Of a stretch of DNA of 64,000 nt, positions 7,807-59,393 are shown in pieces (position 1 is the stretch's first letter; the number at the start of each line of letters is the position of its first letter). The DNA is from a bacterium (lineage in GTDB: Bacteria; UBA8248): assembly GCA_965202625.1 (NCBI GenBank), contig CBDBBI010000010.1, forward strand, positions 1,952,001 through 2,016,000. The letters run 5' to 3'. The notes below the pieces were generated by a model. That model worked only from the letters and a program-made list of their open reading frames with translations. It was not told the DNA's origin and made no database searches. A program made the translations under genes and the position numbers.

Positions 7807-7970
7807 GGGCATCTCTCCGGCGGCGTGGAAATCCATTCTCTCATGCGCTATTGAATATAGGTTTGAGGGCGCATTCGCGCAAAATTGCCCGTGAATCCCC
7901 GAAAAATGGGAAAGGGGGTTTTTGCGTCAAATGGGACTGCCCACCCATCCCCAGACAGGAGATCGGCTTG

Positions 7971-8348
7971 ATGAGCGAGGAATCACGCTTCGAGAAAGGA
8001 ATGAAAAACCGCGCGAAGGTGTTTGGCGTCGAAGGCGAGGAGAGGCGCAAGGCGTTCGCGGCGGCGAGTCCCGCATTCGCCCGCTTCGTCACGGAGAACA
8101 TATACGGCGAGCTCTATGAGCGAGAGGGCATGGACCCCAAAACCAGGGAGACCGTGATCCTCTCCATCCTGTGCGCCCTCGGACGGGACAAGGAGTTCGA
8201 GCACCACGCCAAGGCGGCGCTGAACATCGGCATGAGCAAGGAGGACGTTCAGGAGATCATCATGGTGTGCGCACTCTACGCGGGCGCTCCCAACGCGGTG
8301 GGGGCGACGGAAGCCTCGCTGCGCGTTTTCAGGGAACTGGGAATCTAG
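7971..8348 (+). CDS. Carboxymuconolactone decarboxylase family protein
   Basis: YGELYEREGMDPKTRETVILSILCALG...HAKAALNIG...EIIMVCALYAGAP. Confidence 0.88.
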   Translation: MSEESRFEKGMKNRAKVFGVEGEERRKAFAAASPAFARFVTENIYGELYEREGMDPKTRETVILSILCALGRDKEFEHHAKAALNIGMSKEDVQEIIMVCALYAGAPNAVGATEASLRVFRELGI

Positions 8349-8351
8349 TCG

Positions 8352-9386
8352 TCACCCATCGGGGCCCAGGACGGCTCTGATTTTTTTGACGAGCTCCGTC
8401 GTGAGGCGCCGCGCCGCCTCGTCAAGGGGCGCCCTCAAGCGCGCGCCGGCGGCGAAAGCGTGGCCGCCTCCTCCAAACTTCCGGGCCACGTCATGAATTT
8501 CCACGCGACCCTTCGAGCGCAGGCTCACGCGGATGCGCCCGCTTCCCAGCTCCGAGAAGAAGGCGATGACCTCGACGGATTCTATCGAGCGGGGAACCGA
8601 AACGTATTCCTCCGTCTCGCTGCGCGACACTCCGAAACGCTCCAGCTCCTTCGCGCTGAGGGTGAACCAGGCCAGGCGTCCCCCGCAGTCGAGCGTCATC
8701 CGGCTCATCAGCGCCCCCAACAGCTTCACGGAGCCCGCGCCGTTCGATTCCCAGAAAACCGAGTAGGCTTCTCCGGGACGCACGCCGAGCGCGACGAAGC
8801 GCGACGCCCAGTTCAGAGTGCGCCTTGAGGTGTTCGTGAAGCGAAACTGCCCCGTGTCATAGACGATGGCGGCCATGAGCGCCCGGGCGATGAGGGGATC
8901 GACAAACCGATATCCCTCCTCGTCCAGGTAATCGGCGATCATCTCCCCCACCGCCGCGGCGCCCGGGTCGATGACGGAGGGACAATCGATGTTGTCTTCC
9001 TCTCGAATGTGATGATCAACGACGGCAAGGGGAAGGCCGCTAGCCGTCACCGGCACCTCGAGCTTGCCCAGGCGGCTGGCCTTGCCCGTGTCGACGATGA
9101 GGCATCCGTCGAAGCGATGCGCCCAGTCCTCCTGCGCGAGAAGATCCTCTCTGGATCGCGCGCGGCCCTCCGGGTCGAAGGAAGCGGCGAAGGCGGGCAC
9201 GTCGCCTTCGGCGACGACCACAGCCTGCTTGCCGATCCCCCGAAGGTAGCGGCTCAGCGCGATGCTCGTGAGAAAGCCGTCCCCGTCCGGCCCCACGTGG
9301 GTGAGAAGCAAAAAGCGCTCGTGCGCGGACAAAAAATCTCTCAAGGGGCGAAAACGGCTGGAGCCGTCCTCTTTCTCCACGCTCAT
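8352..9386 (-). CDS. nrnA: DHH family phosphoesterase / oligoribonuclease NrnA
   Basis: THVGPDGDG, VDHH, YDTGQF, SLRSKG, FGGGGHAFAAGA; ATG overlaps pncB stop (ATGA). Confidence 0.92.
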   Translation of the reverse strand: MSVEKEDGSSRFRPLRDFLSAHERFLLLTHVGPDGDGFLTSIALSRYLRGIGKQAVVVAEGDVPAFAASFDPEGRARSREDLLAQEDWAHRFDGCLIVDTGKASRLGKLEVPVTASGLPLAVVDHHIREEDNIDCPSVIDPGAAAVGEMIADYLDEEGYRFVDPLIARALMAAIVYDTGQFRFTNTSRRTLNWASRFVALGVRPGEAYSVFWESNGAGSVKLLGALMSRMTLDCGGRLAWFTLSAKELERFGVSRSETEEYVSVPRSIESVEVIAFFSELGSGRIRVSLRSKGRVEIHDVARKFGGGGHAFAAGARLRAPLDEAARRLTTELVKKIRAVLGPDG

Positions 9387-10555
9387 GGAGCTCGCTCCAG
9401 ACCCACGCGGTGGATTTGGCGCAAAACGTAAGCCCTGATCTCCTTCGCGGAAGTCTCCGGGCGGGCGCGCGCGCCGTTTTCCATGACGCTTGCGAGCTGC
9501 TGCTCCATCACGCCGCCGCAAGACGCGCAGTCCCCGTAGGGCCTGTCTATCGGTATGACGCGCTCATCCCCGCAATCGCGGCAGCGCAGCAGATGCTTCG
9601 CGCCCGATTTCTTGCCGCGCTTGGCGACCGGCTCGCCATCCACCTCGACGACGTCCATCGAGAAATCCATCGTGGACGCGGAGCTGATCGAGGTGCCCAC
9701 GCCGTAGCCGCCGTCCACGGCGGGGTTGATCTCCAGAATCTTCTCCTCGTCCAGCCCCCCGCTCACGAATATCTTGACGCGCGGGAATCCCGCCCGGTCG
9801 AGCTCCCAGCGCACCTCCTCCAGAATCTCAAGCAAGTTCCCCCGTCGGGAGGCTGGCGTATCGATCCGCACAGCCGAGAGACGATCGGTGAGCACCCGTG
9901 CCGCCGTCAGGGCTTCGAATTTCTCATCCCCGAACGTATCCACCAGCGCGACGCGCTCCACCTCCGGCTCGATGATCTCATCGAAAGCTTTCATCGCCGG
10001 CGCCAAGCCGCCCATGAGAACGATCAGCGCGTGGGGCATGGTGCCGGCCGCCGGAATCTCCAAAAGCGCGGCCCCCTTCACGAGCGCGACGCCGTCGCAA
10101 CCGCCAACGTAGGCGGCGCGTTCGACCATCGGCGCGATGGCCGGGTGCATTCTCCGCGCGCCGAAGCTCACGAGCCGCCGGCCTTGCGCCGCTATGCGGC
10201 ACCGCGCCGCCTTGGTGGCGATGCCGCTCGACTGGCACATCAGCCCCAAGACGGGGGTCTCCAGCCTGCAAAAGTCGTTGTAGATCCCCTCGATTTCCAG
10301 AACGGGCTGGAAGGGCCTGAAAACGGAACCCTCCGGCACGGCGCGAACGTTTACGGGAAACCCATCAAGGAGGCGCAGAATTTCCTCGAGACCCGCGAAC
10401 ACCCCCCAGCCAGAGGGAAGCGACTTGGCGGTGAATTCCGCGCGCACGCGCTTTTGGATTCCCTTGGCCTCCAGCACCTGGCGCGCACGCTCGAAATAGA
10501 CGTCCGTCACCTGAGCGGAGCGAATGTCGTCAAAATTCGCGGTAAACAGATTCAA
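9383..10555 (-). CDS. pncB: Nicotinate phosphoribosyltransferase
   Basis: TDVYF, SFGARR, GTMPHA, LVDTF, VRIDTP, SGGLDE, GVGT; C-terminal CxxC...CxxC. Confidence 0.92.
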   Translation of the reverse strand: MNLFTANFDDIRSAQVTDVYFERARQVLEAKGIQKRVRAEFTAKSLPSGWGVFAGLEEILRLLDGFPVNVRAVPEGSVFRPFQPVLEIEGIYNDFCRLETPVLGLMCQSSGIATKAARCRIAAQGRRLVSFGARRMHPAIAPMVERAAYVGGCDGVALVKGAALLEIPAAGTMPHALIVLMGGLAPAMKAFDEIIEPEVERVALVDTFGDEKFEALTAARVLTDRLSAVRIDTPASRRGNLLEILEEVRWELDRAGFPRVKIFVSGGLDEEKILEINPAVDGGYGVGTSISSASTMDFSMDVVEVDGEPVAKRGKKSGAKHLLRCRDCGDERVIPIDRPYGDCASCGGVMEQQLASVMENGARARPETSAKEIRAYVLRQIHRVGLERAP

Positions 10556-11151: not shown

Positions 11152-12111
11152 CTAGGAGGCGGAAGCCGCCGCCTGCTTTCGGGTCTCCGCCTGCGCTTCA
11201 AGATATTTCTCGGCGGCGACCGCCGCCGTGGTCGCATCGCCCGAGGCGTTCGTGATCTGTCGAATCAACTGGCTCCTGCAATCGCCCGCTACGAAAAGCC
11301 CCGGAACGCTCGATTCCATGTTCTGATCCGTGATGATGAAGCCGCCCTCGTCCTTCTCTACGGGGTCTTGTATCAAATCCGTGTTCGGAATGAAACCGAT
11401 GAAAACGAACAGGCCCGTGGCGTCGAGCTCGCTCGTCTCGTCGGTATTCACGTTTCGAATGCGGAGCCTCTTCATCTCCTTGTCATCGCCCCCCACCTCC
11501 TCCGCCACGTGGTCGGTGATGATCTCTATCTTGGGGTTCTCCCGCGCCTTGTCCATCAAAATCGCGTGGGCGCGGAACTTATCGCGGCGGTGGACGAGAT
11601 AGACCTTCGAGCCGTATTTCGTCAAAAACTGACCCTCCTCCACCGCGCTGTTCCCGCCCCCCACAACGGTGATCACCTCGTCCTGGAAGAATGCGCCGTC
11701 GCACAGCGCGCAATAGCTGACGCCCTTGCCCGCGTATTTCTCCTCGCCCGGAATCCCGAGCTTTCTCGGATAGCCGCCGGGCGTATAAATCACCGCGCCG
11801 CAGCGGCGCTCGCCCGCGTCGGTCCGGACGATGAAGTCATCCCCGTCCTTCCGCACTTCCAAAACTTCTTCCATCTCGATTTTAAGGCCGAACTTCACGG
11901 CGTGATCCGTAAACTTGGCCGCCAGCTCCTGGCCGCCGACCAACTCGAAGCCCGGATAATCCTCCACGTGCTCAGTGTTGAGAATCTCGCCGCCGGGCGC
12001 CAGCTTTTCATAGCAGACCACGTTCAGCTTCGAGCGAGCGGTATAAAGCCCCGCCGTCAGCCCGGCGGGCCCGGCACCAATGATGATGATTTCAAAATCG
12101 CGCTTCGGCAA
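11152..12111 (-). CDS. trxB: Thioredoxin-disulfide reductase
   Basis: IIGAGPAGLTA, GVSYCALCDG, VVGGGNSA, VHRRD, AGD. Confidence 0.96.
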   Translation of the reverse strand: MPKRDFEIIIIGAGPAGLTAGLYTARSKLNVVCYEKLAPGGEILNTEHVEDYPGFELVGGQELAAKFTDHAVKFGLKIEMEEVLEVRKDGDDFIVRTDAGERRCGAVIYTPGGYPRKLGIPGEEKYAGKGVSYCALCDGAFFQDEVITVVGGGNSAVEEGQFLTKYGSKVYLVHRRDKFRAHAILMDKARENPKIEIITDHVAEEVGGDDKEMKRLRIRNVNTDETSELDATGLFVFIGFIPNTDLIQDPVEKDEGGFIITDQNMESSVPGLFVAGDCRSQLIRQITNASGDATTAAVAAEKYLEAQAETRKQAAASAS

Positions 12112-12421
12112 AACGAATCTCCACGCTGGAGGAAAACAGACAAAAAACGAAACCTATGCACCAGACGCAACGGACAGCCAAATTCTAGCACCCGCACCAT
12201 ATCATGCCAACCCCGCAGAAATTCGCCGGCCCGGTGCCGAAGCCATCGCCAAAAAGACGGGGATGGACGGCATCCGCGCGACTTTGCGGGAGTTTCTGTT
12301 TCTCTCTGCCTCAGGCCGCCAGTGCCCAAGTCCATGCTTCTTTCGTTTGCTGGTTGCGCGGAGCAAGGCAAACCACCAGATCGCCCGTCTTCGCATCTTA
12401 CGGGAACCGCATCTCCCGCCC

Positions 12422-12700
12422 TCAAATGGGGCGATCGCGCCCCTTATCGTTCACGGCGGCGATTCCCAGCAGGCTTTCGAGCCTAGCCCTATCGAAGCCG
12501 ACCACTTTCTCCTCACCCACGAAAATCACGGGCGCAGCGCGCATGTTCGCCCTCTGGAACAGATCCTCAAGCGCCTCTGCGTCCTCATCCACACGCTTCT
12601 CCGTATAGGCCACGTCATGATAGGAGAGAAACTCTCTCACCGCCTTGCAGGGCGCTCACGTTGAGGAAGAGTACACCGTCACCCTTTTCGCATCCAACAT
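12422..12700 (-). CDS. Glutaredoxin/NrdH-like selenoprotein (UxxC), 92 aa with Sec15
   Basis: RBS GGAGG then ATG at 12700: MLDAKRVTVYSSST-TGA-APCKAVREFLSYHDVAYTEKRV...AAPVIFVGEEKVVGFD; TGA at 12656-12658 occupies the first Cys position of CxxC. Confidence 0.88.
12624..12638 (-). promoter_or_regulatory. Putative bacterial SECIS hairpin of the glutaredoxin-like gene
   Basis: GAGAG-AGTTT-CTCTC stem-loop (extendable by G-C and G-U pairs past a bulged U), loop G 24 nt after the TGA. Confidence 0.7.
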
Positions 12701-12783
12701 CCGCACCTCCTATAAAAACGTCTGAATGCCTCCTCACCGCAACTGGGCGTGCGCCGGGCGGCCTTGCCCAGGCGAGATTTTCG

Positions 12784-14154
12784 CTACCTCGGCGTATTCA
12801 CCCTCTCCAGCAAGGCCGTGAGCTCTCTCGTCCGAATCGAGTCGAGCCTCGAGACGGCGTCTGCGATCTCCTCGCGCAAGGAGGCGTCCGTGCGCGCCTC
12901 GCTCAGCGTCTCGAATTTCTCCTTCACCACTCCCCATCCCATCGGGGTGGAGAAATGCCCCTCCCAGGCGGGCTTCTCCAGCCTGTGGACATCGCCGCCC
13001 TTCAGCGTGACGGCGATCCGCACGGGCGACTGCGCGGGATACCTCGCCGTCATCTCATCGGAGTTCGTGGTTCTCACCTTCCTCAAAAGCTCCTGCACGT
13101 CATCGGCGCGGATTCTCTCCTCCGCATATTGCGCCGGCAGAACCTGCTCGTCGATGATGGCGACCGAGAGCACGTAGGGCAAGCTGTGATCCGCCGTCTC
13201 CTTGTTCAGCACGTGCTCGCGCGCGCCCGCCTTGCCCTCGCCCATGATGAAATAGGCGCGCTCGTAAATTCCGATCTCCACGTCCTCGACGTCCTCGGGC
13301 ACAAAGCCGTGTTCGCGCTTCATCTCGATGACACCCTGGATCGCCGTCTGGGAATGCAGGCCCGCGTTGTAGCGTTTGACGCTGATCTCAAGCATTTTTC
13401 CTAAAGAAGCGTCCGACCAGTCCACGTGGAACTCTCCCGTCACCGACTCGAACACCCCGAAAGGGCCCTCCAGCAGCCGGAGGGGGCCGCTCACACCGCG
13501 CATGGCCAGAAACGTCGAATGCACTCCGCTGTGCCCCGCAGCCGCGTAGGCAAACCCTTTCCAATGGGACAGCTCGCCCGTGCGCGTGATGAGCAGGGGG
13601 TTTTGGCGCACTCCGCTCAACGCGATGGCGTGGGCCGTCCTCTCCAGGTCAAGACCCAGGGCGCGCGAGGCACCCGCAGCCACGGCGTAGGCGCCCGCCA
13701 TAGGCTGATCGAAACCCCTCTTCTCATAGGGGGCGCTGTCGCAAAAGCGGCACTGCACCTCGTAGGCTACGGCGAGGGCGGTCATGAACTCCGCGCCGCT
13801 CGCGTCGGCGTATTCGGCCGCCGCCATCACGCTGCCCGTGTTGTCGCTCGGGTGCGAGGTGGCGAGCTTCCCCATGAACCCATCGTTGAAATCCAGATAC
13901 CGAATCAGCGCGGTGTTGTAGAACGCCGCCCTGTCCGGCGCGGATCTTCCGCCGCCGATGAGCGCGCAGTGGGCCGCGCCGCCAAAATCATCCGCCTGCG
14001 CGCGCAAGAGGCGCACCGGACCCTCTCCCAGAGAGCCGATGGCACAGCCGATGGTGTCGAGCATGAGCGTCTTCGCCTGAGTGCGCGCCTCCTCGGAGAG
14101 ATCATCAAAACTCTTCGCAGCGGCGAAGGCTGCGATCTCCTCTACTATCGTCAT
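12784..14154 (-). CDS. MmgE/PrpD family protein (2-methylcitrate dehydratase-like)
   Basis: RYLDFND, SHPSDN, RTGELSHWKG, KETADHSLPY. Confidence 0.92.
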   Translation of the reverse strand: MTIVEEIAAFAAAKSFDDLSEEARTQAKTLMLDTIGCAIGSLGEGPVRLLRAQADDFGGAAHCALIGGGRSAPDRAAFYNTALIRYLDFNDGFMGKLATSHPSDNTGSVMAAAEYADASGAEFMTALAVAYEVQCRFCDSAPYEKRGFDQPMAGAYAVAAGASRALGLDLERTAHAIALSGVRQNPLLITRTGELSHWKGFAYAAAGHSGVHSTFLAMRGVSGPLRLLEGPFGVFESVTGEFHVDWSDASLGKMLEISVKRYNAGLHSQTAIQGVIEMKREHGFVPEDVEDVEIGIYERAYFIMGEGKAGAREHVLNKETADHSLPYVLSVAIIDEQVLPAQYAEERIRADDVQELLRKVRTTNSDEMTARYPAQSPVRIAVTLKGGDVHRLEKPAWEGHFSTPMGWGVVKEKFETLSEARTDASLREEIADAVSRLDSIRTRELTALLERVNTPR

Positions 14155-14243
14155 GTGGGCACTCCTCGGTCGAACCAGATTTTTTGGGGAAACCCGCTGC
14201 TCGCACCGCCCGCCGAATACCCCTGGCAAGGGATGAGTGCGGG

Positions 14244-15248
14244 TTAGCCGCCGTTCAGTTTCCTGTATGTCTTCTGCATGATGAGGGCATCGTATTCCAG
14301 TGCGGGACTCTCGCACACTACACGACCCTCCGCCCCGAAGTCTATCAGCGCGCGCAACAAGTCCGGATAGTTCATGTCCGAATCGTCCAGTTCGAGGTGA
14401 TGCGCCTCACCCTTGTCCGAATACGCGATGCCCGAGAGGTGAATGTGCATCGTCTTCAGAACCTCTTCGCCCATCTTGTTCTTCAAAAGCTCGAGCTGCT
14501 CCCCAAATTCCTCGTAACTGTTGTTCGCCCCGGCCGAGCGCGCGTGAATATGGGCGAAGTCTATTGTCAATCCCACGTTTTTCTCCTTGAGGGCGGCGCC
14601 CACCTCGGCAATCTCCTGAAGGGAGCCGAACTGGCTGCCCTTTCCCGTGGTCTCCGGGTCCAGGCGCACTGGACAGCCCTCCTCTTTCAGGACGTCGGCG
14701 AGCTCCCCTATCTGGTCGCGAATGAAGTCCTGCGTCTCCTTCGGGTCTCGCTTCTGGTAAAACCCGGGGTGAAAGCACGCGCCGTCTCCGCCGCACACGG
14801 CCAAGGCGCGCGCCGTATCCAGCACGCGCTTGCGGCTCGCGATGCGCTTCTCCTCCTCAAGCGAGTAGAGGTTCACGTAATAGGGGCCGTGCGCAGTGAT
14901 CTGAACACCCGTCTCGGCCTGGGCGGACTTCACCTCCTCGCACGTCTGCGGCCTGATGCGAACGCCGTGCACGAACTCCATTTCATAGACGCCCAGGCCC
15001 AGCGCATAGAGTCTGCGCACCGCTTCGGGGTGGGACTGCGGACGGGCCGAATGCGGAACACCTCCCGTGCCGAAGAAAATGCGATCCGCCCTCTTCGGCT
15101 TCGCGTTCAGCCGCAAGGGACCGTCATATATTCTTCCTTTTGGCTTTTCCTGCGGAACCCCCGGCGCCCAGCCGCGCACCTCCGCCTTCGGCCTGGCCGC
15201 TCTGCTCTTCGCGGGGGTTTTCTTCGTCTCTGCTCGCTTCTCCGGCAT
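14244..15248 (-). CDS. nfo: Endonuclease IV (AP endonuclease family 2, archaeal-like subtype)
   Basis: TAHGPYYVNL, FHPGFY, ETTGKGSQFG, IDFAHIHAR, HIHLSGI, CESP metal-binding motifs. Confidence 0.88.
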   Translation of the reverse strand: MPEKRAETKKTPAKSRAARPKAEVRGWAPGVPQEKPKGRIYDGPLRLNAKPKRADRIFFGTGGVPHSARPQSHPEAVRRLYALGLGVYEMEFVHGVRIRPQTCEEVKSAQAETGVQITAHGPYYVNLYSLEEEKRIASRKRVLDTARALAVCGGDGACFHPGFYQKRDPKETQDFIRDQIGELADVLKEEGCPVRLDPETTGKGSQFGSLQEIAEVGAALKEKNVGLTIDFAHIHARSAGANNSYEEFGEQLELLKNKMGEEVLKTMHIHLSGIAYSDKGEAHHLELDDSDMNYPDLLRALIDFGAEGRVVCESPALEYDALIMQKTYRKLNGG

Positions 15249-17405: not shown

Positions 17406-17906
17406 TTAGAGATTCACCGAATAGGGCAACGACTTGATATACCTTTCCATGAATTTCCAATTGGGGTCACCTGCGAAGGTTGCGGGCAGATTGATTCTCG
17501 CTTTCCGCAACCTCTCCTGACTGCATTTGCGTCCATAGTTATATCGATATTGCTCAAGGTTAATCACAGCCGCCAAGAACATGGGGACATACTTGTTCAT
17601 GGGGAATTTCGGCAAGAGCTTTTCCACGTGATCTGACGCGGAAAAAGGCCGATCCCGATATGCGCAATACCCCAAAACCGCGCTGTCTATCATGAGAACG
17701 CCGCCATGCCCCACGGGCTCCTTCCACGCATTGCAAAAGCCCTTGACTCCATTGTTCGTCGCCTGCGTTGTGACGTAAGGATGGCCACTTTGCGGCGTGC
17801 GGGGCTCCAAATCCAGATAAAGCGCCGTCTTGGTGCCTGCAACCTTGAAAAGATACGTAAAACAATCGCGCACGGAGATATTAGAATGGAGATATCCCGC
17901 TGTCAA
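17406..17906 (-). pseudogene. Orphan half of a restriction-modification specificity (S, BcgI-beta-like) subunit
   Basis: PYVTTQATNNGVKG, FSASDHVEKL, QYRYNYGRK, INLP...PNWKFMERYIKSL; only one TRD, no convincing start, no MTase/REase neighbour. Confidence 0.65.
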
Positions 17907-20444: not shown

Positions 20445-20695
20445 TCAACACCTCCAAAGGCGGCAAGCCCGAGCAGACGCAACAGGGACCCTTCAATGAC
20501 TCTGATTATCCCAACATCCGAGGAACAAGTCCATTGCGAAAAAGATGGAACGCCCGCGCGACGCGGATTCGCCCAAATCGTTGATGGCGGGTTCGCCCTC
20601 TGCTACCATCGGGTGTGATTGTGGAAATCGGTCTGATGGATCCGGACGAGGCCACGCCCGGCCCCGGTCGAAAAAGTCGAGGAACTCCTGATCGC

Positions 20696-21895
20696 ATGAA
20701 TGAACTGAAAAAAATGCCGCTTGAGGGCGTCAAGGTCATTGATGTGGGGACCTTGTTCGCCGGGCCTTGGATAGCTACCTACATGGCGGATTTCGGGGCG
20801 GAGGTCATCAAGGTCGAGCACCCGCGCGGCGACTCCCTCAGAAACTTCGCCTCCCAGAAGGACGGCGTCTCGCTGTGGTGGAAGCTGGCGAGCCGAAACA
20901 AAAAATCTATCACCTGCGATATCTCTGCACCGGAAGGAGGAGAGATACTCCGCGCGCTCTCCGAGAGCGCAGACGTGCTGGTGGAGAACTTCCGTCCAGG
21001 CACCATGGAGCGATGGGGACTCTCCTGGGAGCGTCTCCACATGCTCAACCCGAAGCTCATTCTGGCGCGAACGAGCGGTTTCGGACAAGAGGGGCCCTAC
21101 GCGCACAGGCCCGGCTTCGGTACGCTGGCGGAGGCGATGAGCGGCTTTGCGCACATCACGGGCTTTCCCGACGGACCGCCTACCCTGCCGCCCTTCGCGC
21201 TGGCCGACGGCATCAGCGCGCTGTGCGGCGTCTACGCCGTGATGATGGCACTCTACCATCGCGACGTGCACGGCGCGTCCGGCCAACAGATCGACGTCGC
21301 GATTTACGAGCCCATCGCCACAATACTGGGCCCGCAACCGCTCGAATACGATCAGCTGGGCCTCGTCCAGACGCGCACGGGAAACGCCATTCCCTTCGCC
21401 GCGCCCAGAAACGCCTACCGTTGCAAGGACGGCCGATACGTCGTGATATCAGCGAGTGCGGAGAATATATTCAAGCGCATCATGCGCGCCGTGGGGCGCG
21501 AGGACCTCGCCGATGACCCCAGAATGCGCACTCAAGCGGGGCGCGTGGAGAACGTGAAGGAGCTGGACGACGCCATTCAGCGCTGGATAGGTGCGCATAC
21601 CCTCGATGAGACCATCGCCCATTTCGAGGAGCATGAAGGCGCCTTGGGGCCCATTTACGACGTGGCCCAGTTCATGGCGGACCCCCACGTGCAAGCGCGA
21701 GGGAGCATCACCACCGTGGAGGACGAGGAGCTGGGGCCCCTGCGGATGCAAAACGTGATTCCGAAGCTGAGCGCCTCGCCGGGCGCGATTCGCTGGGCAG
21801 GGCCTCCAAAAGGCAAGCACACGGAAGAGGTGCTCGGGAAAATCGGATACGACCGCGTGGGGATAGCAGCGCTGAGAGACAAGGGCGTCGTCTAG
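20696..21895 (+). CDS. CaiB/BaiF family III CoA-transferase
   Basis: PLEGVKVIDV, ADFGAEVIKVEHP.GD, RNKKSI, DVLVENFRPG. Confidence 0.94.
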   Translation: MNELKKMPLEGVKVIDVGTLFAGPWIATYMADFGAEVIKVEHPRGDSLRNFASQKDGVSLWWKLASRNKKSITCDISAPEGGEILRALSESADVLVENFRPGTMERWGLSWERLHMLNPKLILARTSGFGQEGPYAHRPGFGTLAEAMSGFAHITGFPDGPPTLPPFALADGISALCGVYAVMMALYHRDVHGASGQQIDVAIYEPIATILGPQPLEYDQLGLVQTRTGNAIPFAAPRNAYRCKDGRYVVISASAENIFKRIMRAVGREDLADDPRMRTQAGRVENVKELDDAIQRWIGAHTLDETIAHFEEHEGALGPIYDVAQFMADPHVQARGSITTVEDEELGPLRMQNVIPKLSASPGAIRWAGPPKGKHTEEVLGKIGYDRVGIAALRDKGVV

Positions 21896-21900
21896 CCCTG

Positions 21901-22803
21901 ATGAGGGAGACCCCGCACCACTGCGCCTTCGTCTTTCACAGAAATTACTGCGCCGACATCGGCCCCCATGTCCTGCGAGCCGAAAAATACCAGAAGACCC
22001 ACGATAGACTACGAGAGGCCGGGCTGCCTGAGAGCGTTTTTCTGGCGCCTCGGGCGGCTACAGAGGAGGAAGTCCGCCTCGTCCACACCCATGAATACGT
22101 TTCGGACCTGCGCTCGAGCGCGCACACCGCCCGCACAATTTCGAGCGAGATCCCCATCAGCGAGGAGATCGTCGAAGCCGGCTTTCTGGCGACCGGCGGG
22201 ACCATCCTCGCCGCGCGTGAGGCGCTCGAAAGGGGCCGTGCCCTGAACCTCAGCGGGGGATTCCACCACGCCTTCGCCGATCGGGCGGAGGGGTTTTGCT
22301 ACGTCAACGATTTGGCGGTCGCCATCCGCGTCCTTCAAAGGGAAGGCGCCATATCGAGGGCGGCGGTGATCGACAGCGACCTTCACCAAGGAAACGGCAC
22401 CGCCGTCATATTCAGACGAGACGACGCTGTGTTCACCTTCTCCATTCATCAGGAAAACATCTATCCCCATAAGAGGAGGAGCGACATCGACGTTGGCCTC
22501 TACGATCTCGCCACCGAGGAAGAATACCTGCCTCATCTAAAGAAGTGCCTGCCCCAAATACTGGATGAGCACAAGCCCGACCTCGCAATCTACCAGGCGG
22601 GGGCGGACCCCTACGCCGGAGACCAGCTCGGAACCCTCCAGCTCTCGAAGGAGGCCTTGGGGAGGCGCGATGAATGCGTTCTTGAAGCGTGCCTCGCGCG
22701 CGGGGTTCCCGTCGCAGGCACTCTGGGGGGCGGATACGCCCTGAACCCCGAGGACACGGTGGACATCCACTTTCAGACGGCTTTGCGCTTTTGGGAAGTT
22801 TAG
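21901..22803 (+). CDS. Histone deacetylase family protein
   Basis: GGFHHA, GFCYVND, DSDLHQGNGT, QAGAD, LGGGY. Confidence 0.92.
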   Translation: MRETPHHCAFVFHRNYCADIGPHVLRAEKYQKTHDRLREAGLPESVFLAPRAATEEEVRLVHTHEYVSDLRSSAHTARTISSEIPISEEIVEAGFLATGGTILAAREALERGRALNLSGGFHHAFADRAEGFCYVNDLAVAIRVLQREGAISRAAVIDSDLHQGNGTAVIFRRDDAVFTFSIHQENIYPHKRRSDIDVGLYDLATEEEYLPHLKKCLPQILDEHKPDLAIYQAGADPYAGDQLGTLQLSKEALGRRDECVLEACLARGVPVAGTLGGGYALNPEDTVDIHFQTALRFWEV

Positions 22804-22871
22804 GATTTCCTTTCCCCAGAAGCCATGTATACTGCTCCGCATAGCCGCAATTCCCAAAAACAAGGAAGCGA

Positions 22872-24179
22872 ATGCCCACGTTTTCCAAAAGCGCCGCCGC
22901 CAAAAAGCCAAATTTCTACTACGGCTGGCTCATCGTCTGGCTCTCCTTCGGAACACTGGCGTTTCACGTCGTCACTCGGTTTTCCTTCGGCATCTTTCAG
23001 GTTCCCCTGATCCAGGAGTTCGGCTGGAGCCGGGGGGTTTTGGGCGGTGCCTTCTCCCTTTCCATGGCCGTATACGCCTGCGGCTCGCCATTTGCGGGCT
23101 CGCTGCTGGAAAAAAGAGGGCCGCGCGCCCTGATGCCTTGGGGGTCCGTCCTGCTGGGCACCACGTTCGTGGGATGCTTCTTCATCACCTCGCTCTGGCA
23201 CGTGTATGTTCTCATCGGCCTCTGCGCAGGGTTTGGCCTTTCTCTGAGCGGCTTCTCTACGCACAGCGCCATCATTCCGCGGTGGTTCGTGAAAAAAAGG
23301 GGCCGCGCCACGGGAATCGCCCTCTCCGGCATCGGAATCGGCATTCTCGTCCTCGCCCCTGTCCTCGAACGCCTCATCGCCTCCGTCGGCTGGCGCCTCA
23401 CCTACTTGCTCTACGGGCTCGTCATCCTCTGCGTCGTCGCGCCGGGGGGATTTCTGCTCCTTCGAGACGTGCCGGAGGACGTGGGCCAGGGGCCGGACGG
23501 GGGCGCACCGCGCACGCCGGAGGAGATGGCGAAGTCGGGGGTCGGCCACGGCGGCGAGGGCAAGGGAGTCTGGGAGGTTTTCGCCGCCGTAAAAAACGAC
23601 GTTCGCTTTTGGTGCCTCATCCTGATGGTGTTCGCCATCGGCCTCAACAACAACACCATAATGAGCCAGCTTCAGCTGTATCTCGTTGACGCCGAATACA
23701 GCACGGCGGCGGCGGCCGTCATCTTCGGCGCGGTTGGGTTCATCAGAACCCTGGGCAGCGTGGGCGGAGGATGGATGGGGGACGTCATCGGGCGCGGGCG
23801 CGGGGTGGCACTCTCCGCCCTGGTGGTCGCCACCGGACTAACGCTTCTACTGCTCATTCCCCATTTCGGTGGAGGCACTCTGCCGGGCTACGCTTTCGCG
23901 CTGGTGTACGGAGTCGGCATCGGCGGCATGAGCACCTGCTATTCCGCCCTCGCGGGAGATTGCTTCGGGGGACGGACCTATGGCGTGATCATCGGCTTCA
24001 TGGAGATCTGCTACGGCTTGGGCGGCGTCCTCGGCCCGCCGTTCGCGGGACTGATGTACGACTACACGAAAAGCTACCTTCTACCGTTCACGACTATCAT
24101 CGTATTCATGTTCGTTTCGATGGGACTCGCTCTATGGCTACAAGAATACATGAAGAGGCATGACCTCGCCCCGAAATAG
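22872..24179 (+). CDS. MFS transporter
   Basis: FYYGW start, ~12 TM, GSLLEKRGPR loop motif, WFVKKRGRATG. Confidence 0.92.
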   Translation: MPTFSKSAAAKKPNFYYGWLIVWLSFGTLAFHVVTRFSFGIFQVPLIQEFGWSRGVLGGAFSLSMAVYACGSPFAGSLLEKRGPRALMPWGSVLLGTTFVGCFFITSLWHVYVLIGLCAGFGLSLSGFSTHSAIIPRWFVKKRGRATGIALSGIGIGILVLAPVLERLIASVGWRLTYLLYGLVILCVVAPGGFLLLRDVPEDVGQGPDGGAPRTPEEMAKSGVGHGGEGKGVWEVFAAVKNDVRFWCLILMVFAIGLNNNTIMSQLQLYLVDAEYSTAAAAVIFGAVGFIRTLGSVGGGWMGDVIGRGRGVALSALVVATGLTLLLLIPHFGGGTLPGYAFALVYGVGIGGMSTCYSALAGDCFGGRTYGVIIGFMEICYGLGGVLGPPFAGLMYDYTKSYLLPFTTIIVFMFVSMGLALWLQEYMKRHDLAPK

Positions 24180-24187
24180 GGAGGCGT

Positions 24188-24817
24188 TCATTTGAGGTTC
24201 TTCAAATATCTCTTCACTTCGTATCGCGCGGAAACCTCTGAAAATTTCTTTCGCATCGCCTCCCTTTTACCGCGCTCGCCCATCTCCTCGGCGATCGAGG
24301 GCAGGCCCCGTCGCCTGGCCGTCACCCCCGCTCATAGTTCCTAGGCTTCCCCGAGCGCACGCTCGGGGGCGCGGGAGTATTTCTCTTGGCCAGTTCGACA
24401 AAATTCTCTCCCCTGTCAAGCTTCTCGACCAAATCCTTCGTCTCTTTCTCTGATAACACCATGATGTGGGAGGCGGTGACTTTATCCCCTTCGGTATATT
24501 TTGACTTGTTCTCCTCATACTTCGTTCGCACCGCAGACACCTCGGGCTTCGCGCTCTCCTCGACCCTGCGAATGGCCTCGCCGATGAGAATCTCGCGCCG
24601 CGCATACTCCATGCGCATCCTCACCTGCGCGCTGGCGAGAAAATTGTTGTCGTTCGCGTATTGAAGCATGAGCTAGCGGTAAATGAGCGTCTCCAAAAGC
24701 GCTGCTTTGTTCGTTCGCGCCTCCGCCTGCAAATAGGCCGACGGACGCAAGAGAGACGAAAACCAACGAAGCGGCGAGCGCGAGCCTCCCTCTTGGGGCG
24801 ATGCGTCGAAACGTCAT
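24188..24817 (-). pseudogene. Decayed PpiC/PrsA-type peptidyl-prolyl isomerase
   Basis: Signal peptide in one frame; KAALLETLIYR*LMLQYA with TAG at 24673-24675; VTASHIMV..GENFVELAK; frameshift into GSLG; C-terminal YEVKRYLKNLK* in another segment. Confidence 0.8.
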
Positions 24818-24866
24818 GAGACGATCTCCCAAAAGTATGGCCAAGCAGCATTATCTTCCCCGCCAC

Positions 24867-25577
24867 TCAGGGTGCGCGCTCCATGCGCTTCGGCCCGATG
24901 AGCAAAACGCACTCACCCTTGATTCTTTTGCCATTCAGCCTCTCACGCAGCCCCTGTGCCGTGTCCCTGAGAATCTCCTCATGCAGCTTTGTGAGCTCGC
25001 GCGCCAGGGCGAGAGGACGCGCAGGCGCGACGGCTGCGATCTCGCCGATCAGGTTCACGACCCTGTGTGGCGACTCGAACAGGACGACAGTGCGCTCCTC
25101 CTCCAAAAGCACATCCATCGCCTTATGCCTTTTTCGCCCCTTGGGAGGGAGGAACCCCTCAAAAGCGAATCTGTCCGTGGGTAGGCCGGAGGCGATCAAG
25201 GCGGCCAGAACGGACGATGCGCCGGGCACGGGAACGACCTCGACGCCCGCCTCGATCGCCGCGCACACCACTCGATAGGCGGGATCGGAAACTCCCGGCG
25301 TTCCGGCGTCCGACACGACGGCGACGCGCGCGCCCCCAAGCGCGCGCCCGGCCAACTCCTCCGCACGCTTCACCTCGTTGTGCTCGTGGTAGCTCAAGAG
25401 CGGCTTCTTGATTCCGAGCCGGGCCAGCAACCTCCCCGTCCGGCGCGTGTCCTCGCACGCCACCAAGTCGCACTCGCCCAACACCCTGCGACCACGCTCG
25501 GAGACGTCCTCCAAGTTTCCAATCGGCGTGGCGACCAGATAGACGCCGGGTGAGAGGGGGGACGGCGATTTGGCCAT
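24867..25577 (-). CDS. rsmI: 16S rRNA C1402 2'-O-methyltransferase
   Basis: YLVATPIGNLED, ACEDTRRT, SDAGTPGVSDP, FESPHR, RELTKLHEE. Confidence 0.96.
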   Translation of the reverse strand: MAKSPSPLSPGVYLVATPIGNLEDVSERGRRVLGECDLVACEDTRRTGRLLARLGIKKPLLSYHEHNEVKRAEELAGRALGGARVAVVSDAGTPGVSDPAYRVVCAAIEAGVEVVPVPGASSVLAALIASGLPTDRFAFEGFLPPKGRKRHKAMDVLLEEERTVVLFESPHRVVNLIGEIAAVAPARPLALARELTKLHEEILRDTAQGLRERLNGKRIKGECVLLIGPKRMERAP

Positions 25578-25581
25578 TCAA

Positions 25582-26784
25582 TCAAGCTATGACGCCAGCG
25601 TTCCGCAGATTTTTTATCTCATCATCGCTTCTACCGAGCTCTCGAAGCACTTCATCGGTATGCTCCCCCAAAAGGGGCGCCGGCGTTCTCACGCCGACCG
25701 GCGTCTCAGAGAGTTGGGGCGGGAAGCCGAGAACCTGCATTCGGCCTGCTGTGGGATGTTCGACCTCCACGCTCATCCGCCGGGCCTGAATCTGGGGATG
25801 CGCGAACGTCTCCGCCATGTTCAGTATCGGGCCGCATGGAACTCCTCCCGAATCGAGAAGCGCCACCCACTCGGCTCGCGTCTTTTGCGCAAACACCCCG
25901 TTCAGCTCCTCGGCGAGTTTCAGGTAGTTCTCGCGCCTTAGGCCGTCCGTGGCGTATTCCGCGCGGCGCATGAGGTCTTCGCGCGCGATCGTCCGACAAA
26001 AATGCTCCCAGTTTCTCTGGTTGGCCGCGCCGAGCGCCAGATATCCATCCTTGCACTGAAAGGCCTGGTAAGGGGCCGTCATCTCGTGCGCGGAACCCAG
26101 CGGCGCGGGCGGCTCGCCCGAGGGGAAGAACTGAGACGCCTGCCAGAAGGTATAGCCGAGGCCCGCGTCGGTCAGCGCCACGTCAATGTGCTGCCCCTCA
26201 CCGGTGCGCTGCCGGTGGACATAGGCGCACAGAACCGACAGCGCCGCATACATGCCCGCGTTCAGATCGCATATCGGCACGGGTATTTTTGCGGGTGCGC
26301 CGCCAGGCTCACCCGTGAAGCTCATGAGGCTGGAGAACCCTTGCGACACCAGGTCGAAGCCGGCCTTACCGGCGAAGGGGCCCGTGTCGCCATAACCGGA
26401 GATGGAGGCATAGATGAGGCCCGGGTGGATTCCCTTCAGCACCTCGTAGCCGAGGCCTAGTTTGGTCATGGTGCCAGGCCTGACGTTCTCCACCAGCACG
26501 TCGAATTGCCTGACAAGTTCTTTCATCAGCGCAACGCCTTCGGGCGACTTCATGTTCACCGCCGCGCTGCGCTTGTTCCTGTTCAGGTTCATAAAACCGT
26601 GGGCCTCGCCGCCGTCAAAATATCGGCCCAGGCGTCGCGCGCTGTCCCCGCCCTCGGGGTTCTCCACCTTGACGACATCCGCGCCCATGTCCGCCAGCAG
26701 GCATCCACAGAACGGGCCAGCCATGACCTGGCAAACTTCCAGGACCCGAACGCCCTCAAGCGGGCCGCCCGTCTCTTGGCCCAT
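25582..26784 (-). CDS. CaiB/BaiF family III CoA-transferase
   Basis: PLEGVRVLE, LADMGADVVKVE, NRNKRS, APLLGEHT. Confidence 0.94.
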   Translation of the reverse strand: MGQETGGPLEGVRVLEVCQVMAGPFCGCLLADMGADVVKVENPEGGDSARRLGRYFDGGEAHGFMNLNRNKRSAAVNMKSPEGVALMKELVRQFDVLVENVRPGTMTKLGLGYEVLKGIHPGLIYASISGYGDTGPFAGKAGFDLVSQGFSSLMSFTGEPGGAPAKIPVPICDLNAGMYAALSVLCAYVHRQRTGEGQHIDVALTDAGLGYTFWQASQFFPSGEPPAPLGSAHEMTAPYQAFQCKDGYLALGAANQRNWEHFCRTIAREDLMRRAEYATDGLRRENYLKLAEELNGVFAQKTRAEWVALLDSGGVPCGPILNMAETFAHPQIQARRMSVEVEHPTAGRMQVLGFPPQLSETPVGVRTPAPLLGEHTDEVLRELGRSDDEIKNLRNAGVIA

Positions 26785-26790
26785 CCTCTC

Positions 26791-27600
26791 TTATTTCCCT
26801 TGAAACTCAGGCGTGCGCTTAACCAGAAAAGAATCCACGCCCTCACGGAAGTCTGCAGTGTCGAAGCAGGCAAACTCGCGCATTCTCTCCTCATCTGTCA
26901 AAGAGGAGAGGCTCGGATCCGCCAGTATTTTCTTCACGAACTCCTTGTGCCATCGATGAACGAGGGGTGCCAGAGAAGCGACGCGCTCCGCCACCTCATA
27001 CGCCGCGCTCTCCACCTGCGCATCCGGCGCGACGCGCGCCAGAAAGCCCGCCTCCCGCATCTCCTGCGCCGTAAAAAGTTTGGCTGTGAGCAGCATGTCC
27101 ATCGTGCGCCCCGGTCCGATCGACTGCACGAAACGCCTGAGCTCCGAGCAACCCGCCACCAAGCCTAGCTTCGCCACCGGCACGCCGAAGCGCGAACCCT
27201 CGCCTGCGATGCGCAAATCCGTCGCGGCGGCCAGCTCCACGCCCCCGCCCACACAAGCGCCGCGGATGAGGCAAATAACGGGCTTGGAGAAAGCGTCCAC
27301 CGCGTCCAGTCCACGCAAAAACCCGCCTTCCGCGTAACGTCTTGCCTGCTCGGAGCTATAGCGCTCCTCCCGAAAGCGAGAGATGTCCGCCCCCGCCGAA
27401 AAGGCGCGTTCGCCCGCGCCCCGAAAAACGACGGCGCGCACGGAAGCGTCCCCCTCGAGATCCGGCATGAGACGGGCAATTTCCACCCACATCTCATATT
27501 CAATCGCGTTCATCTTCTCGGGCGCGTGAAGCGTTATCGTCGCCACCGCGCCTTTGCGGGAAAGACGTATTTTTCCGCCCGCACGCCGTTGCTCGCTCAC
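26791..27600 (-). CDS. Enoyl-CoA hydratase/isomerase family protein (start uncertain)
   Basis: AFSAGADIS, GACVGGGVELA, FGVPVAKLG, DFREGVDSF. Confidence 0.9.
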   Translation of the reverse strand: MSEQRRAGGKIRLSRKGAVATITLHAPEKMNAIEYEMWVEIARLMPDLEGDASVRAVVFRGAGERAFSAGADISRFREERYSSEQARRYAEGGFLRGLDAVDAFSKPVICLIRGACVGGGVELAAATDLRIAGEGSRFGVPVAKLGLVAGCSELRRFVQSIGPGRTMDMLLTAKLFTAQEMREAGFLARVAPDAQVESAAYEVAERVASLAPLVHRWHKEFVKKILADPSLSSLTDEERMREFACFDTADFREGVDSFLVKRTPEFQGK

Positions 27601-27715
27601 CTCGAATCGCCTCGCATTATCCGCCCGGAGCACGGCGGCGCCATCAAGCACCCTGGCGTCAAGTTCGCATCCACCGCACCGCGCGTTGCCCATTGTTTGA
27701 TGGGAAAGGATAAAA

Positions 27716-27934
27716 CTACTCCTCCTGTCCGTCCCTATACTCCTCCAGCCACGCCATCTGGATGGCTTCGAGCTTGCCCTCCGTCGAGGCCATCGGATCG
27801 CCCTCAAAATCCTTCAGCCCGCACACCCAGTCGTGTAGATCGGTGAAACGAACGGAGAGAGGGTCGGTCTTCGGAAATTTTTCGTAAAGCGCGACGCCGA
27901 TGTCCTCGGCGTCCTCCCAACCAAACTTCTCCAC
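27716..27934 (-). CDS. iscX: Fe-S assembly protein IscX
   Basis: WEDAEDI..ALYE.FP..DP..VRFTDLH.WV..L..F.GDP....EGKLEAIQMAWLEE; GTG start after AGGAG. Confidence 0.93.
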   Translation of the reverse strand: MEKFGWEDAEDIGVALYEKFPKTDPLSVRFTDLHDWVCGLKDFEGDPMASTEGKLEAIQMAWLEEYRDGQEE

Positions 27935-36795: not shown

Positions 36796-38067
36796 TCAGC
36801 CCGCGCCACCGATGCGCGCGACGGCACCCACCGGAGGTTCGCTCTTCATCACCTCACGCAAGACCTCGCTCGCATACGCTCCGGGAGGCAACGTGAACCC
36901 AATGCGCAACCCCCCGCCTTCCACCTTAAGGCTCACCTCTTTCACCTGCGCACGATACGGACGCCGGGCACCATAAAGCCGCAGCCTCTCGAGTCCATCA
37001 AGAACGCCCGGCGCATCGACGCCCAGAGATTCTAGCACGCTCCGCTCCAGTTTTTCCGCCCCCGCGCGCGCTTCGAGCATTTTTCGGCCAAGGAGAGGTC
37101 CAGCCGGACTTACCTCAAAACGAGACAAGGCGCCGTTTTCCCCATCAGGCGCGCCCACTCTTCTGACCTTGCTCGTTTCGTGATGAAAAAGCACATCGCC
37201 CGCCCAGACGCGGTCGTGGGCACACACCTCAAGCCTCCTCGCTAGGCACGAGTTAAAAACGGCCGCCTGAAACGCGCCGCCATACAAAGTCCTCTCCCTG
37301 GGAGGAATGGAAGCTACCGCCTGCTCCGGTGAGGCGCCCTTCTCCAGGCGAGAGAGAGCGCGCCACTCCGCCATCCAAGAGGCGGGATACAATCGCCTCG
37401 CCCGTCCAAATTCGCCCGCCTCATACCTGCGAGCCGCCTCCAGCAGACGCTCGTCGGCGTCGTTTCGCGCGGAGGAGAATCGAGCGGTGCCCAATAGCGC
37501 GCACAAAGCACCCCTCCAATCTCCCTTCGCAAGCGCAAAGCCGATGCGCGCCGTATGGCCATGAACGCCGAATCTCTGATCGCCATACGCATTGGGAAGC
37601 CCCCGCGCGGCGAGACAATCCAAAACCGCGCGTGCCTTTCTCTCCGCCCCCGGCACGACTTCTCGAACGAATATCTCGAACCGATTGCCCAAAAGCGCGC
37701 TTCGTCTGATTTTTGTCCGACTCCACGTTTTCTCCAAAACCCGGACGCCGCCCGCATCCTCCGCCCTCAATATGGCCTCCGAAACCCCCCGTTCTCTTGT
37801 CCTGAAGGAGAACCACTGCCTCGCCACCGCATTGGCGTCCTTAAGTCCCGCGTAGCCCGCCTCCGCCTCCGTAAGGTTTAGCGAGCGACACAAGGCGCGC
37901 ATCGCCTCAATGGTCGAGATTCCCCGCTTCTCCACCCACAAATACAGATGCTCCCCATCCCCGCTTGGACACACGAGGGGTATTTCCTCCACGCGAAAAT
38001 CCTCGAATCTCACACGCAGACGCCCACCGGCACCGGCAACAGGATCCGTGAGATACGCTCCCCCCAT
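36796..38067 (-). CDS. truD: tRNA pseudouridine(13) synthase
   Basis: EDFRVEE, GEHLYL.VEK, YAGLKDA.A...QW, GNRF.I, PN.YG.QRFG, FTLPPGAYA..VLRE. Confidence 0.94.
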   Translation of the reverse strand: MGGAYLTDPVAGAGGRLRVRFEDFRVEEIPLVCPSGDGEHLYLWVEKRGISTIEAMRALCRSLNLTEAEAGYAGLKDANAVARQWFSFRTRERGVSEAILRAEDAGGVRVLEKTWSRTKIRRSALLGNRFEIFVREVVPGAERKARAVLDCLAARGLPNAYGDQRFGVHGHTARIGFALAKGDWRGALCALLGTARFSSARNDADERLLEAARRYEAGEFGRARRLYPASWMAEWRALSRLEKGASPEQAVASIPPRERTLYGGAFQAAVFNSCLARRLEVCAHDRVWAGDVLFHHETSKVRRVGAPDGENGALSRFEVSPAGPLLGRKMLEARAGAEKLERSVLESLGVDAPGVLDGLERLRLYGARRPYRAQVKEVSLKVEGGGLRIGFTLPPGAYASEVLREVMKSEPPVGAVARIGGAG

Positions 38068-38176
38068 TCTCTCTCCCTCGCCGATCCCGCTACGCCAAAT
38101 CGCCCAATTAACGCTATACTCCTGTTTCTCATCGCGCGGGATCGACTCTCGGTCCTCTCTCTCACAGGGAATACTC

Positions 38177-44820: not shown

Positions 44821-48461
<3,641 letters not shown>

Positions 48462-50020: not shown

Positions 50021-50079
50021 GGAGCGACTCGATGGGTGATAACGTCGCATGGGCATTTTGGTTTGAGCATGAGCGGATT

Positions 50080-58062: not shown

Positions 58063-58279
58063 GAACGACACTCGTTTCGGGGCGGGAGAGCGGTGAAGCG
58101 ATGGTAGCACAGATGGGCGTTTTTGAGGCGGTGGGAGGTTGTGCTTTCCCGCCAATGTGCAATAATGTCGTATAGGCTCCGAGAAAGAATATTTTTGACC
58201 GCGCGTATTCTTTCGGTAGCGACTTATACTTGTTGTTTATTTTGCGCGGCGTTTCAAGGAAGGAAAGGGGGGTTTGGTC

Positions 58280-59314: not shown

Positions 59315-59393
59315 GTCGCGCTCGCCCGGCGTCCTTCTCCCGGGGGGGACGCCGCATGCCGCAGTTCTTGAGAATTGAGAGGGTCCGCTCAGT

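Follow-up and report, generated by a model that had tools for sequence, protein, structure and literature searches.

A candidate selenocysteine-containing glutaredoxin-like redoxin encoded upstream of trxB in a bacterium of the GTDB lineage UBA8248

Glutaredoxins with selenocysteine (Sec, U) in a UxxC motif (Pfam PF00462) count among the prokaryotic selenoprotein families with experimental support, according to PMC13188914 and PMC9312934. The closest characterized relative of the gene described here is cGrx1 of Clostridium oremlandii, which is reported, with cMsrA, as a native selenoprotein of that bacterium; it has a U(or C)PXC motif, was proposed as the reductant of cMsrA, and had its Sec replaced by Cys for the structure 7C10 (PMC7642778). 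Two other redoxins have been linked to thioredoxin reductase (TrxR): the Cp9 gene of Clostridium pasteurianum is described as flanked on its two sides by genes for a TrxR-like protein and a peroxiredoxin (PMC3720550), and Bacillus cereus TrxR is reported to reduce BC3987 (PMC8564101). We analyzed 64,000 nucleotides (nt) of contig CBDBBI010000010.1 (assembly GCA_965202625.1, positions 1,952,001 to 2,016,000), a stretch referred to below as the window, in which a short redoxin gene with an in-frame TGA codon lies upstream of trxB. This locus very probably encodes a real, unannotated selenoprotein of the known Sec-glutaredoxin family.

The redoxin gene lies on the minus strand. Direct reading of the sequence places a Shine-Dalgarno element, AGGAGG (12706..12711), 5 nt 5' of an ATG at 12700-12698, from which the frame runs through MLDAKRVTVYSSST to a TGA at 12658-12656 and then through APCKAVREFLSYHDV and beyond to a second TGA at 12424-12422. 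When the first TGA is translated as U, the coding sequence (12425..12700) specifies 92 residues. The TGA (12656..12658) is codon 15 and occupies the nucleophilic position of a U-A-P-C motif, the translation downstream of it beginning APCKAVREFL. An earlier sequence-only reading had described the ribosome binding site, the ATG, this TGA-interrupted frame, a hairpin with a bulged U, and the spacing to trxB, and each of these was present. The translation table 11 list of open reading frames (ORFs) holds, for this gene, just a 72-amino-acid (aa) ORF from the GTG at 12640, and the same fragment is the entry for the source genome in the public protein collection. A protein database search gave 11 matches among 15 candidates, and the seven closest database proteins (75 to 84% identity) are all 62 aa long and all start at the position of V21, with the same GTG as in the window. 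Strand 1 and the two redox residues lie outside the 72-aa piece. Public protein sets held only such a fragment, of 62 to 72 aa, in all eight genomes seen, and redox-metabolism reconstructions of these bacteria therefore miss the protein.

To place the TGA in an evolutionary context, we took as homologous loci the best 80 of 231 confirmed relatives from one genome-contig scan and translated them in frame. The aligned codon was TGA in 15 of the 80 loci and Cys (TCxxC) in the remaining 65, so that the UGA aligns with the catalytic Cys of homologues, the classical Sec/Cys pattern. The TGA was kept in all 13 close relatives (71 to 82% identity), several of which are titled as Nitrospinota or Nitrospinaceae metagenome-assembled genomes (MAGs). 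The other two TGA-bearing loci, L024 and L048, belong to the Bacillota "Candidatus Desulfosporosinus nitrosoreducens" (TUPYC) and Alkaliphilus transvaalensis (TUPHC). The window gene and these 15 loci make up the 16 Sec sequences discussed below. The sequence-only reading had allowed that the TGA might be unique to one assembly with close relatives all encoding Cys; this was not borne out, given the 13 of 13 close relatives with TGA, and no close Cys orthologue occurred among the 80 loci.

Signs of coding constraint extend upstream of the TGA. Across 14 sequences, the eight codons 5' of it vary at all eight third positions but at only four first positions and one second position, and pairwise differences in codons -8 to -3 (VTVYSS) number 225 synonymous versus 26 nonsynonymous. 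By this measure, the codons upstream of the TGA are under purifying selection as protein-coding sequence. TGA also terminates 24 of the 58 complete ORFs in the window, gyrA and the redoxin gene itself included, and so has not been globally reassigned. In a quick maximum-likelihood tree of 81 sequences, with U treated as a gap, the 16 Sec sequences fell on one side of a branch with a Shimodaira-Hasegawa-like approximate likelihood ratio test (SH-aLRT) value of 98, which remained at 96 when residues 14 to 27 (the active site and the peptide encoded by the hairpin) were dropped; this tree has few columns and long branches leading to L024 and L048.

The protein made by reading through the TGA matches the Pfam Glutaredoxin model PF00462 above the gathering threshold, active site included (53.6 bits against a cutoff of 22.9; 2.6e-14; residues 7 to 64 on profile positions 1 to 58 of 60, spanning the TGA). 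An AlphaFold2 model built from a 47-sequence alignment has a mean predicted local distance difference test (pLDDT) score of 83.1 and a glutaredoxin fold with the order strand-helix-strand-helix-strand-strand-helix. Residue 15 stands directly before the helix formed by residues 16 to 27, at the N terminus of helix 1, which is the position of the nucleophile, and the last ten residues form a disordered C-terminal tail with a pLDDT below 50. The top Foldseek matches in the Protein Data Bank (PDB) were Archaeoglobus fulgidus Grx-1, BC3987 (template modeling [TM] score, 0.91 to 0.93), and 7C10, "Dithiol cGrx1" (TM score, 0.93 to 0.95; 49 to 51% identity). By sequence, too, the best PDB match was 7c10_A (E = 2.7e-18), with about half of the 77 aligned residues identical.

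The family assignment needs more care. The best-scoring NCBIfam model was GlrX_YruB (TIGR02196), at 69.1 bits against a cutoff of 88.55, and because the score lies under the cutoff we rejected membership and do not file the redoxin under TIGR02196. The Grx3 model gave 47.7 bits against a cutoff of 90. The hallmarks of the Cp9/YruB group, as listed in PMC3720550, are recognizable nonetheless: V7-T-V-Y-S11 fits the [IV]-x-[ILV]-[YF]-[ST] strand, P57 and G68 are invariant and F69 is nearly invariant in the alignment, and L47 aligns without gaps to Leu44 of BC3987, the Leu insert of Cp9/BC3987-type redoxins that is described as missing from NrdH. The sequence-only reading had called the protein NrdH-like, in addition to glutaredoxin-like, and this label we set aside. 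The motif is UAPC and not C-[VIM]-Q-C, the NrdH model (TIGR02194) gave only 48.9 bits against a cutoff of 85.75, the Leu insert is present, and an NCBIfam scan of 62 window ORFs found no match to nrdI, nrdE, or nrdF. What remains of the resemblance to NrdH-redoxin, itself a small glutaredoxin-fold protein reduced by TrxR, is a weak similarity in sequence and fold, with 4hs1 and 1h75 among the matches. Judged from its sequence, the predicted protein is a Sec redoxin of cGrx1/Cp9/YruB-like type whose UAPC motif is unusual, and is not an NrdH.

Its likeness to cGrx1 is the closest. Both have U-x-x-C at the same position, the UAPC motif sits at the N terminus of helix 1, and the cGrx1-type Bacillota genes L024 and L048 group with the window clade on a shared branch and share its GAAAGAGUUUCUUUC hairpin, likewise 17 nt 3' of the TGA. 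Unlike cGrx1, the window redoxin has UAPC, in which Ala replaces the Pro of the U-P-x-C form, and ends in the ten-residue disordered tail. With Cp9, a YruB-type redoxin that works with the TrxR-like reductase Cp34 and the peroxiredoxin Cp20, it shares its small size, an adjacent TrxR-type gene, the strand motif, the Pro, Gly, and Phe residues, and the Leu insert. It differs from Cp9 in having Sec for Cys, an A-P dipeptide outside the C-[PGI]-[PYWQ]-C range given for Cp9 homologues, no adjoining peroxiredoxin gene, and a neighboring TrxB that fits the standard TIGR01292 model. BC3987 (PDB 3ZIJ/3ZIT) aligns with the redoxin over 76 residues without gaps (E = 1e-10), in keeping with the structural match given above, but has Cys in a CPPC motif, and its gene does not lie beside trxB (PMC3720550).

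If the TGA is decoded as Sec, a Sec insertion sequence (SECIS) would be expected downstream of it. An RNAalifold consensus of 14 sequences gave a SECIS-like stem-loop of 16 pairs at 12612..12655 (minus strand). Its lower stem pairs 12655-12648 with 12619-12612 and starts at the base next to the UGA. Above this lies a GG/CC clamp (GG, 12641-12640; CC, 12623-12622), then a bulged U at 12639, and then a 6-bp upper stem (12638-12633 with 12629-12624) closed by the apical loop GUU (12632-12630), with a G in the loop; the upper part thus reads GAGAGA-GUU-UCUCUC (12638-12624). The second TGA, at codon 93, has no hairpin of this kind. Like the SECIS of E. coli fdhF, the redoxin stem-loop starts next to the UGA, carries a bulged U beneath its upper stem, and opens its apical loop with G-U, and it also resembles the bacterial SECIS model that has been published. 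Against the numbering of fdhF, however, its bulged U and its loop are placed some 3 to 4 nt further from the UGA. It differs as well in having a loop of only 3 nt and no counterpart in Rfam: the whole window, scanned at gathering thresholds, matched no family, and hence no curated SECIS or other RNA family stands behind it.

The distribution of the hairpin sequence is more telling than its fold. The core, GARAG[AC]GTTTCTYTC, occurred 15 times on the two strands of the 1.26 Mb that make up the 80 loci, and all 15 occurrences were in the 15 TGA-bearing genes. It lies exactly 17 nt 3' of the TGA in all 16 Sec genes, whereas none of the 65 Cys genes has it; within the window it occurs once, at 12638. 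Both Bacillota genes, which are AT-rich, carry an identical GAAAGAGTTTCTTTC hairpin. This exclusivity of the predicted hairpin motif to Sec genes, at a fixed distance, is the strongest of the hairpin results. Pairing is consistent with it: 96.3% of hairpin cells were paired, compared with 36 to 69% when partners were slid, and 2 of 500 shuffles reached the covariation score. Compensation is clear at a single pair, which is A-U in nine sequences and G-C in five; there, a change of AGA to AAA (Arg to Lys) always accompanies a synonymous change of the Leu codon CTC to CTT. Mean local fold energy over positions +15 to +48 was -8.5 kcal/mol in Sec genes and -2.3 kcal/mol in Cys genes.

Several results caution against reading too much into the structure. 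The count of pairs with a change on both sides was matched by 94 of 500 shuffles, and the covariation is thin, the single clear compensatory pair probably reflecting one event. The contrast in fold energy is confounded by GC content (0.53 in Sec genes versus 0.37 in Cys genes), and the weakest Sec value was reached by 7 of the 65 Cys genes. Folded as a single sequence, the 76-nt segment was no more stable than shuffled versions (z = -0.24; 74 of 200 shuffles folded equally well), so the support for the hairpin is comparative. Because the hairpin sits in a conserved peptide (K/R-E-F-L-S), moreover, protein and RNA constraints are entangled.

The machinery for Sec insertion was also sought, and here too the results give no help to the selenoprotein reading. 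Neither selA, selB, and selD nor a tRNA-Sec was found within the 64-kb window, a small part of a contig of roughly 2.9 Mb, and no tRNA-Sec was found in the 15 related loci scanned for tRNAs. When 35 ORFs of L024 and L048 were compared with Pfam (E <= 1e-8), no family suggestive of the Sec pathway appeared beside the two Bacillota genes. In-frame TGA extensions of 59 window ORFs and TGA-containing ORFs in 23 intergenic gaps yielded no convincing second selenoprotein candidate; the window therefore gives no independent sign of Sec use. The literature bears on the window only indirectly. Three MAGs in BSepDB, which carry the names Nitrospinota, Nitrospinaceae, or Nitrospinae (GTDB UBA8248), are credited with 48 to 54 selenoprotein genes (PMC13326102), and most symbiont bins in a study of sponge microbiomes are reported to have SelA and SelB (PMC5649159). 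No description of the redoxin gene itself was found among the papers retrieved on selenocysteine or selenoproteins of Nitrospina, Nitrospinota, or UBA8248.

Could the TGA then be a true stop, with the functional gene being the 72-aa ORF from GTG 12640, or a decaying pseudogene with residual similarity upstream? Gene callers annotate just the 62- to 72-aa piece, no Sec machinery is visible within the window, and the single-sequence hairpin is not significant, all of which would suit such an explanation. We nevertheless consider it very improbable. The piece left after the stop would lack strand 1 and both redox residues, a TGA conserved in 13 of 13 relatives and in two Bacillota genes is hard to reconcile with decay, the codons upstream of it show 225 synonymous versus 26 nonsynonymous differences, a Shine-Dalgarno element precedes the ATG at 12700, and the hairpin motif is exclusive to TGA-bearing genes. 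Read-through without the Sec pathway, by near-cognate suppression with Cys or Trp or by a reassignment in the lineage, to give a Cys or Trp form, seems hardly more credible. It would fit the failure to see sel genes in the 64 kb examined, and Cys at codon 15 would also give an active CxxC redoxin. Reassignment is contradicted, however, by the 24 of 58 window ORFs that end in TGA, and the conservation of a position-specific hairpin across two phyla is what SelB-dependent decoding needs. The closest characterized relative is described as a native selenoprotein, and the selenoprotein-rich MAGs labelled Nitrospinota or Nitrospinaceae (PMC13326102) point, indirectly, the same way. The hidden UxxC selenoprotein gene of glutaredoxin fold proposed from sequence alone thus holds up, backed by the Sec/Cys homologue pattern, the kept TGA, upstream coding selection, the SECIS-like hairpin, and a nearest solved relative that is a native selenoprotein glutaredoxin.

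The identity of the reductant is a separate matter. Downstream of the redoxin gene, at 11155..12111 on the same strand, lies trxB, a gene with a TTG start whose product is a low-Mr thioredoxin-disulfide reductase with the redox motif CALC (TIGR01292, 360.7 bits against a cutoff of 343.45); 310 nt separate the redoxin stop from the trxB start at TTG 12111. The order prpD-like gene, redoxin gene, trxB, nuoI-like gene, NAPRT gene, and nrnA was kept in 12 of the 13 close relatives, two of whose contigs begin too late to include the upstream genes. Beyond these relatives, a TrxB-like gene lies on the same strand 30 to 860 nt from the Cys homologue in 10 of the 65 Cys loci, which come from distant lineages: two Woesearchaeota, one Parcubacteria bacterium, Fervidobacterium, and six Bacteroidota. 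With the precedents of Cp9 and BC3987, both described as dependent on TrxR-type enzymes, this context makes TrxB, on balance, the likely reductant of the predicted redoxin.

A body of evidence weighs against tying the two genes together. A sigma-70-like promoter (TTGGCA, 17 nt, TG-n-TAGAAT) was found at 12182..12210 on the minus strand, about 70 nt 5' of trxB and inside the 310-nt spacer; it has 10 of 12 consensus matches, and one such site was found against 0.2 expected from shuffles. This element was kept in 7 of 13 aligned upstream regions, and the other 6 have a different -10-like box, TATAAT or TAAAAT. Between it and the redoxin gene, a pattern scan marked a weak terminator-like hairpin with a T-run (12261..12275, minus strand; 5 pairs, 3 of them G-C), one of five terminator-like sites in the region against 1.0 expected. 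In 6 of the 13 relatives, two unrelated ORFs separate the redoxin gene from trxB, and L009 has no trxB within 10 kb but a 1,047-aa ORF on the opposite strand instead. Around the Bacillota Sec genes L024 and L048, a search to 10 kb at E <= 1e-5 showed no TrxB-like gene, and the Pfam comparison of their 35 ORFs likewise gave no thioredoxin-reductase-type family next to the redoxin gene. Cotranscription of the redoxin gene with trxB is, from the sequence, doubtful. With a conserved promoter-like site standing in front of trxB itself, a functional link between TrxB and the redoxin is likely but short of proof.

These observations lend some weight to the alternative that the selenoprotein is genuine and draws electrons from glutathione or another donor, with trxB adjacent to it by position and not by function and TrxB mainly serving an ordinary thioredoxin elsewhere. 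The description of cGrx1 as glutathione-reduced (PMC7642778) would suit this explanation, as would the promoter-like site of trxB, the intervening ORFs, the arrangement in L009, and the lack of TrxB-like genes near the two Bacillota loci. We think it a possible but less likely account. The gene order kept in 12 of 13 relatives, the TrxB-like genes beside Cys homologues in 10 loci of distant phyla, and the reported dependence of Cp9 and BC3987 on TrxR-type enzymes speak against it, and the window, which covers only 64 kb, showed no gene for glutathione synthesis or glutathione reductase. Unlike cGrx1, described both as glutathione-reduced and as the reductant of a selenoprotein MsrA, the window redoxin adjoins trxB, and the window holds no msrA. 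The Sec-redoxin/TrxB pair proposed by the sequence-only reading is plausible: synteny, the TrxR-like genes beside Cys homologues, and the family precedents favor it, while the promoter-like element of trxB and the extra genes in six relatives tell against a tight coupling.

We can say with good confidence that the best overall explanation is a 92-residue Sec15-Ala-Pro-Cys18 redoxin, decoded by means of a SECIS, with TrxB as its most likely reductant. The protein would act as a cytoplasmic thiol/selenol-disulfide oxidoreductase with Sec15 as the attacking residue. During translation, the stem-loop directly after UGA-15 would recruit SelB-GTP-Sec-tRNASec, with the apical GUU loop, the bulged U, and the upper stem 17 nt after the UGA as the decoding features, so that Sec would be inserted and translation would not terminate; the second TGA, without such a hairpin, would act as the stop. 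By analogy with the family, Sec15 would then attack a disulfide or sulfenate of the substrate, and Cys18 would resolve the intermediate to leave a selenenylsulfide. This would most likely be re-reduced by NADPH-dependent TrxB, as in the Cp34/Cp9 and TrxR/BC3987 systems, or alternatively by glutathione, as proposed for cGrx1. Peroxiredoxins and methionine sulfoxide reductases, or enzymes akin to them, would be the likely substrates.

Should TrxB prove to be the reductant, the locus would specify a compact chain from NADPH through TrxR to a selenol-redoxin, amenable to testing, in a lineage beyond the Firmicutes and Deltaproteobacteria, where Sec-glutaredoxins have been studied. The family also offers a natural series of Sec and Cys forms for asking what selenium buys a redoxin of glutaredoxin fold. 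Because the Sec-glutaredoxin family (PF00462, UxxC) and the logic of its detection are already established, as set out in PMC13188914, the finding is sound but incremental. What is new is the variant UAPC motif and the conserved trxB neighborhood in a Nitrospinota-labelled lineage, and the novelty is modest. We raise one extension as tentative and rather unlikely: Bacillota and the Nitrospinota-labelled lineage may share the Sec-glutaredoxin gene together with its SECIS hairpin as a single inherited unit, since the 15-nt hairpin is the same in the two, stands equally far from the TGA in both, and belongs to genes that stay in one clade when the active-site and SECIS columns are removed. On that view the gene would have passed horizontally, ready to decode, and been fixed beside trxB in the recipient lineage as a dedicated NADPH-TrxB-Sec-redoxin chain. 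Were that so, the system would be a selenium-based counterpart of Cp34/Cp9, and its UAPC active site would be one so far undescribed in this family.

The gene upstream of the redoxin gene (12787..14316, minus strand) belongs to the MmgE/PrpD family, with Pfam MmgE_PrpD N and C domains, and its stop lies 83 nt 5' of the redoxin ATG. No promoter-like site was found in this 83-nt gap, and the two genes may share a transcript. In the 11 relatives with enough contig on that side, the prpD-like gene again precedes the redoxin gene. A neighboring CMD/AhpD-family gene (7851-8345) was considered as a redox partner and rejected, its product being PcaC-like with no CxxC motif.

The flanks of the redoxin gene attract insertions in two of the relatives. 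In L010, ORFs of 320 and 254 aa lie between the prpD-like gene and the redoxin gene (8044-9758, plus strand), the first of them DNA methyltransferase-like by eye, and the 1,047-aa ORF of L009 (10659-13802, minus strand) is by eye of helicase/restriction type. The two ORFs that intervene between the redoxin gene and trxB encode about 130 and 167 aa and occur in L002 (10375-11989), L003 (10661-11564), L004 (998-1970), L008, L010, and L012. This conserved pair resembles a two-gene cassette that has been inserted, and neither ORF of L003, the copy that was tested, matched a Pfam family. Directly 3' of the Sec-redoxin gene, 8 of the 13 relatives (L006, at 10336-10527, and L004, L005, and L008 to L012) have a zinc-ribbon ORF of 63 to 83 aa with a weak LysW-like match (E = 5.7e-4, below the cutoff). 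It is missing from the window and from L001, L002, L003, L007, and L013.

The window as a whole is a replication-origin region, with dnaA, recF, gyrB, gyrA, rnpA, yidC, mnmE, and mnmG. On the minus strand, dnaA (48698-50056) is followed directly by recF (47352-48461), gyrB, and gyrA, with no dnaN between, unlike the common dnaA-dnaN-recF order. ARAGORN called an 89-nt tRNA-Ala at 37293-37381 (minus strand; anticodon CGC at position 32) inside the truD ORF (36799-38220), but this is probably a false call, since Rfam finds no tRNA there at gathering score. A lone 166-aa ORF at 17409-17906 (minus strand) has a type I restriction-modification specificity (S) domain as its only match and may be a remnant, because no genes for M or R subunits adjoin it. 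Two CaiB-family coenzyme A (CoA)-transferases, an enoyl-CoA hydratase, an MFS monocarboxylate transporter, and an F420-type LLM oxidoreductase are encoded at 20615-27807; together with a glycine-betaine/choline ABC transporter at 58274-61323, they suggest metabolism of compatible solutes or organic acids.

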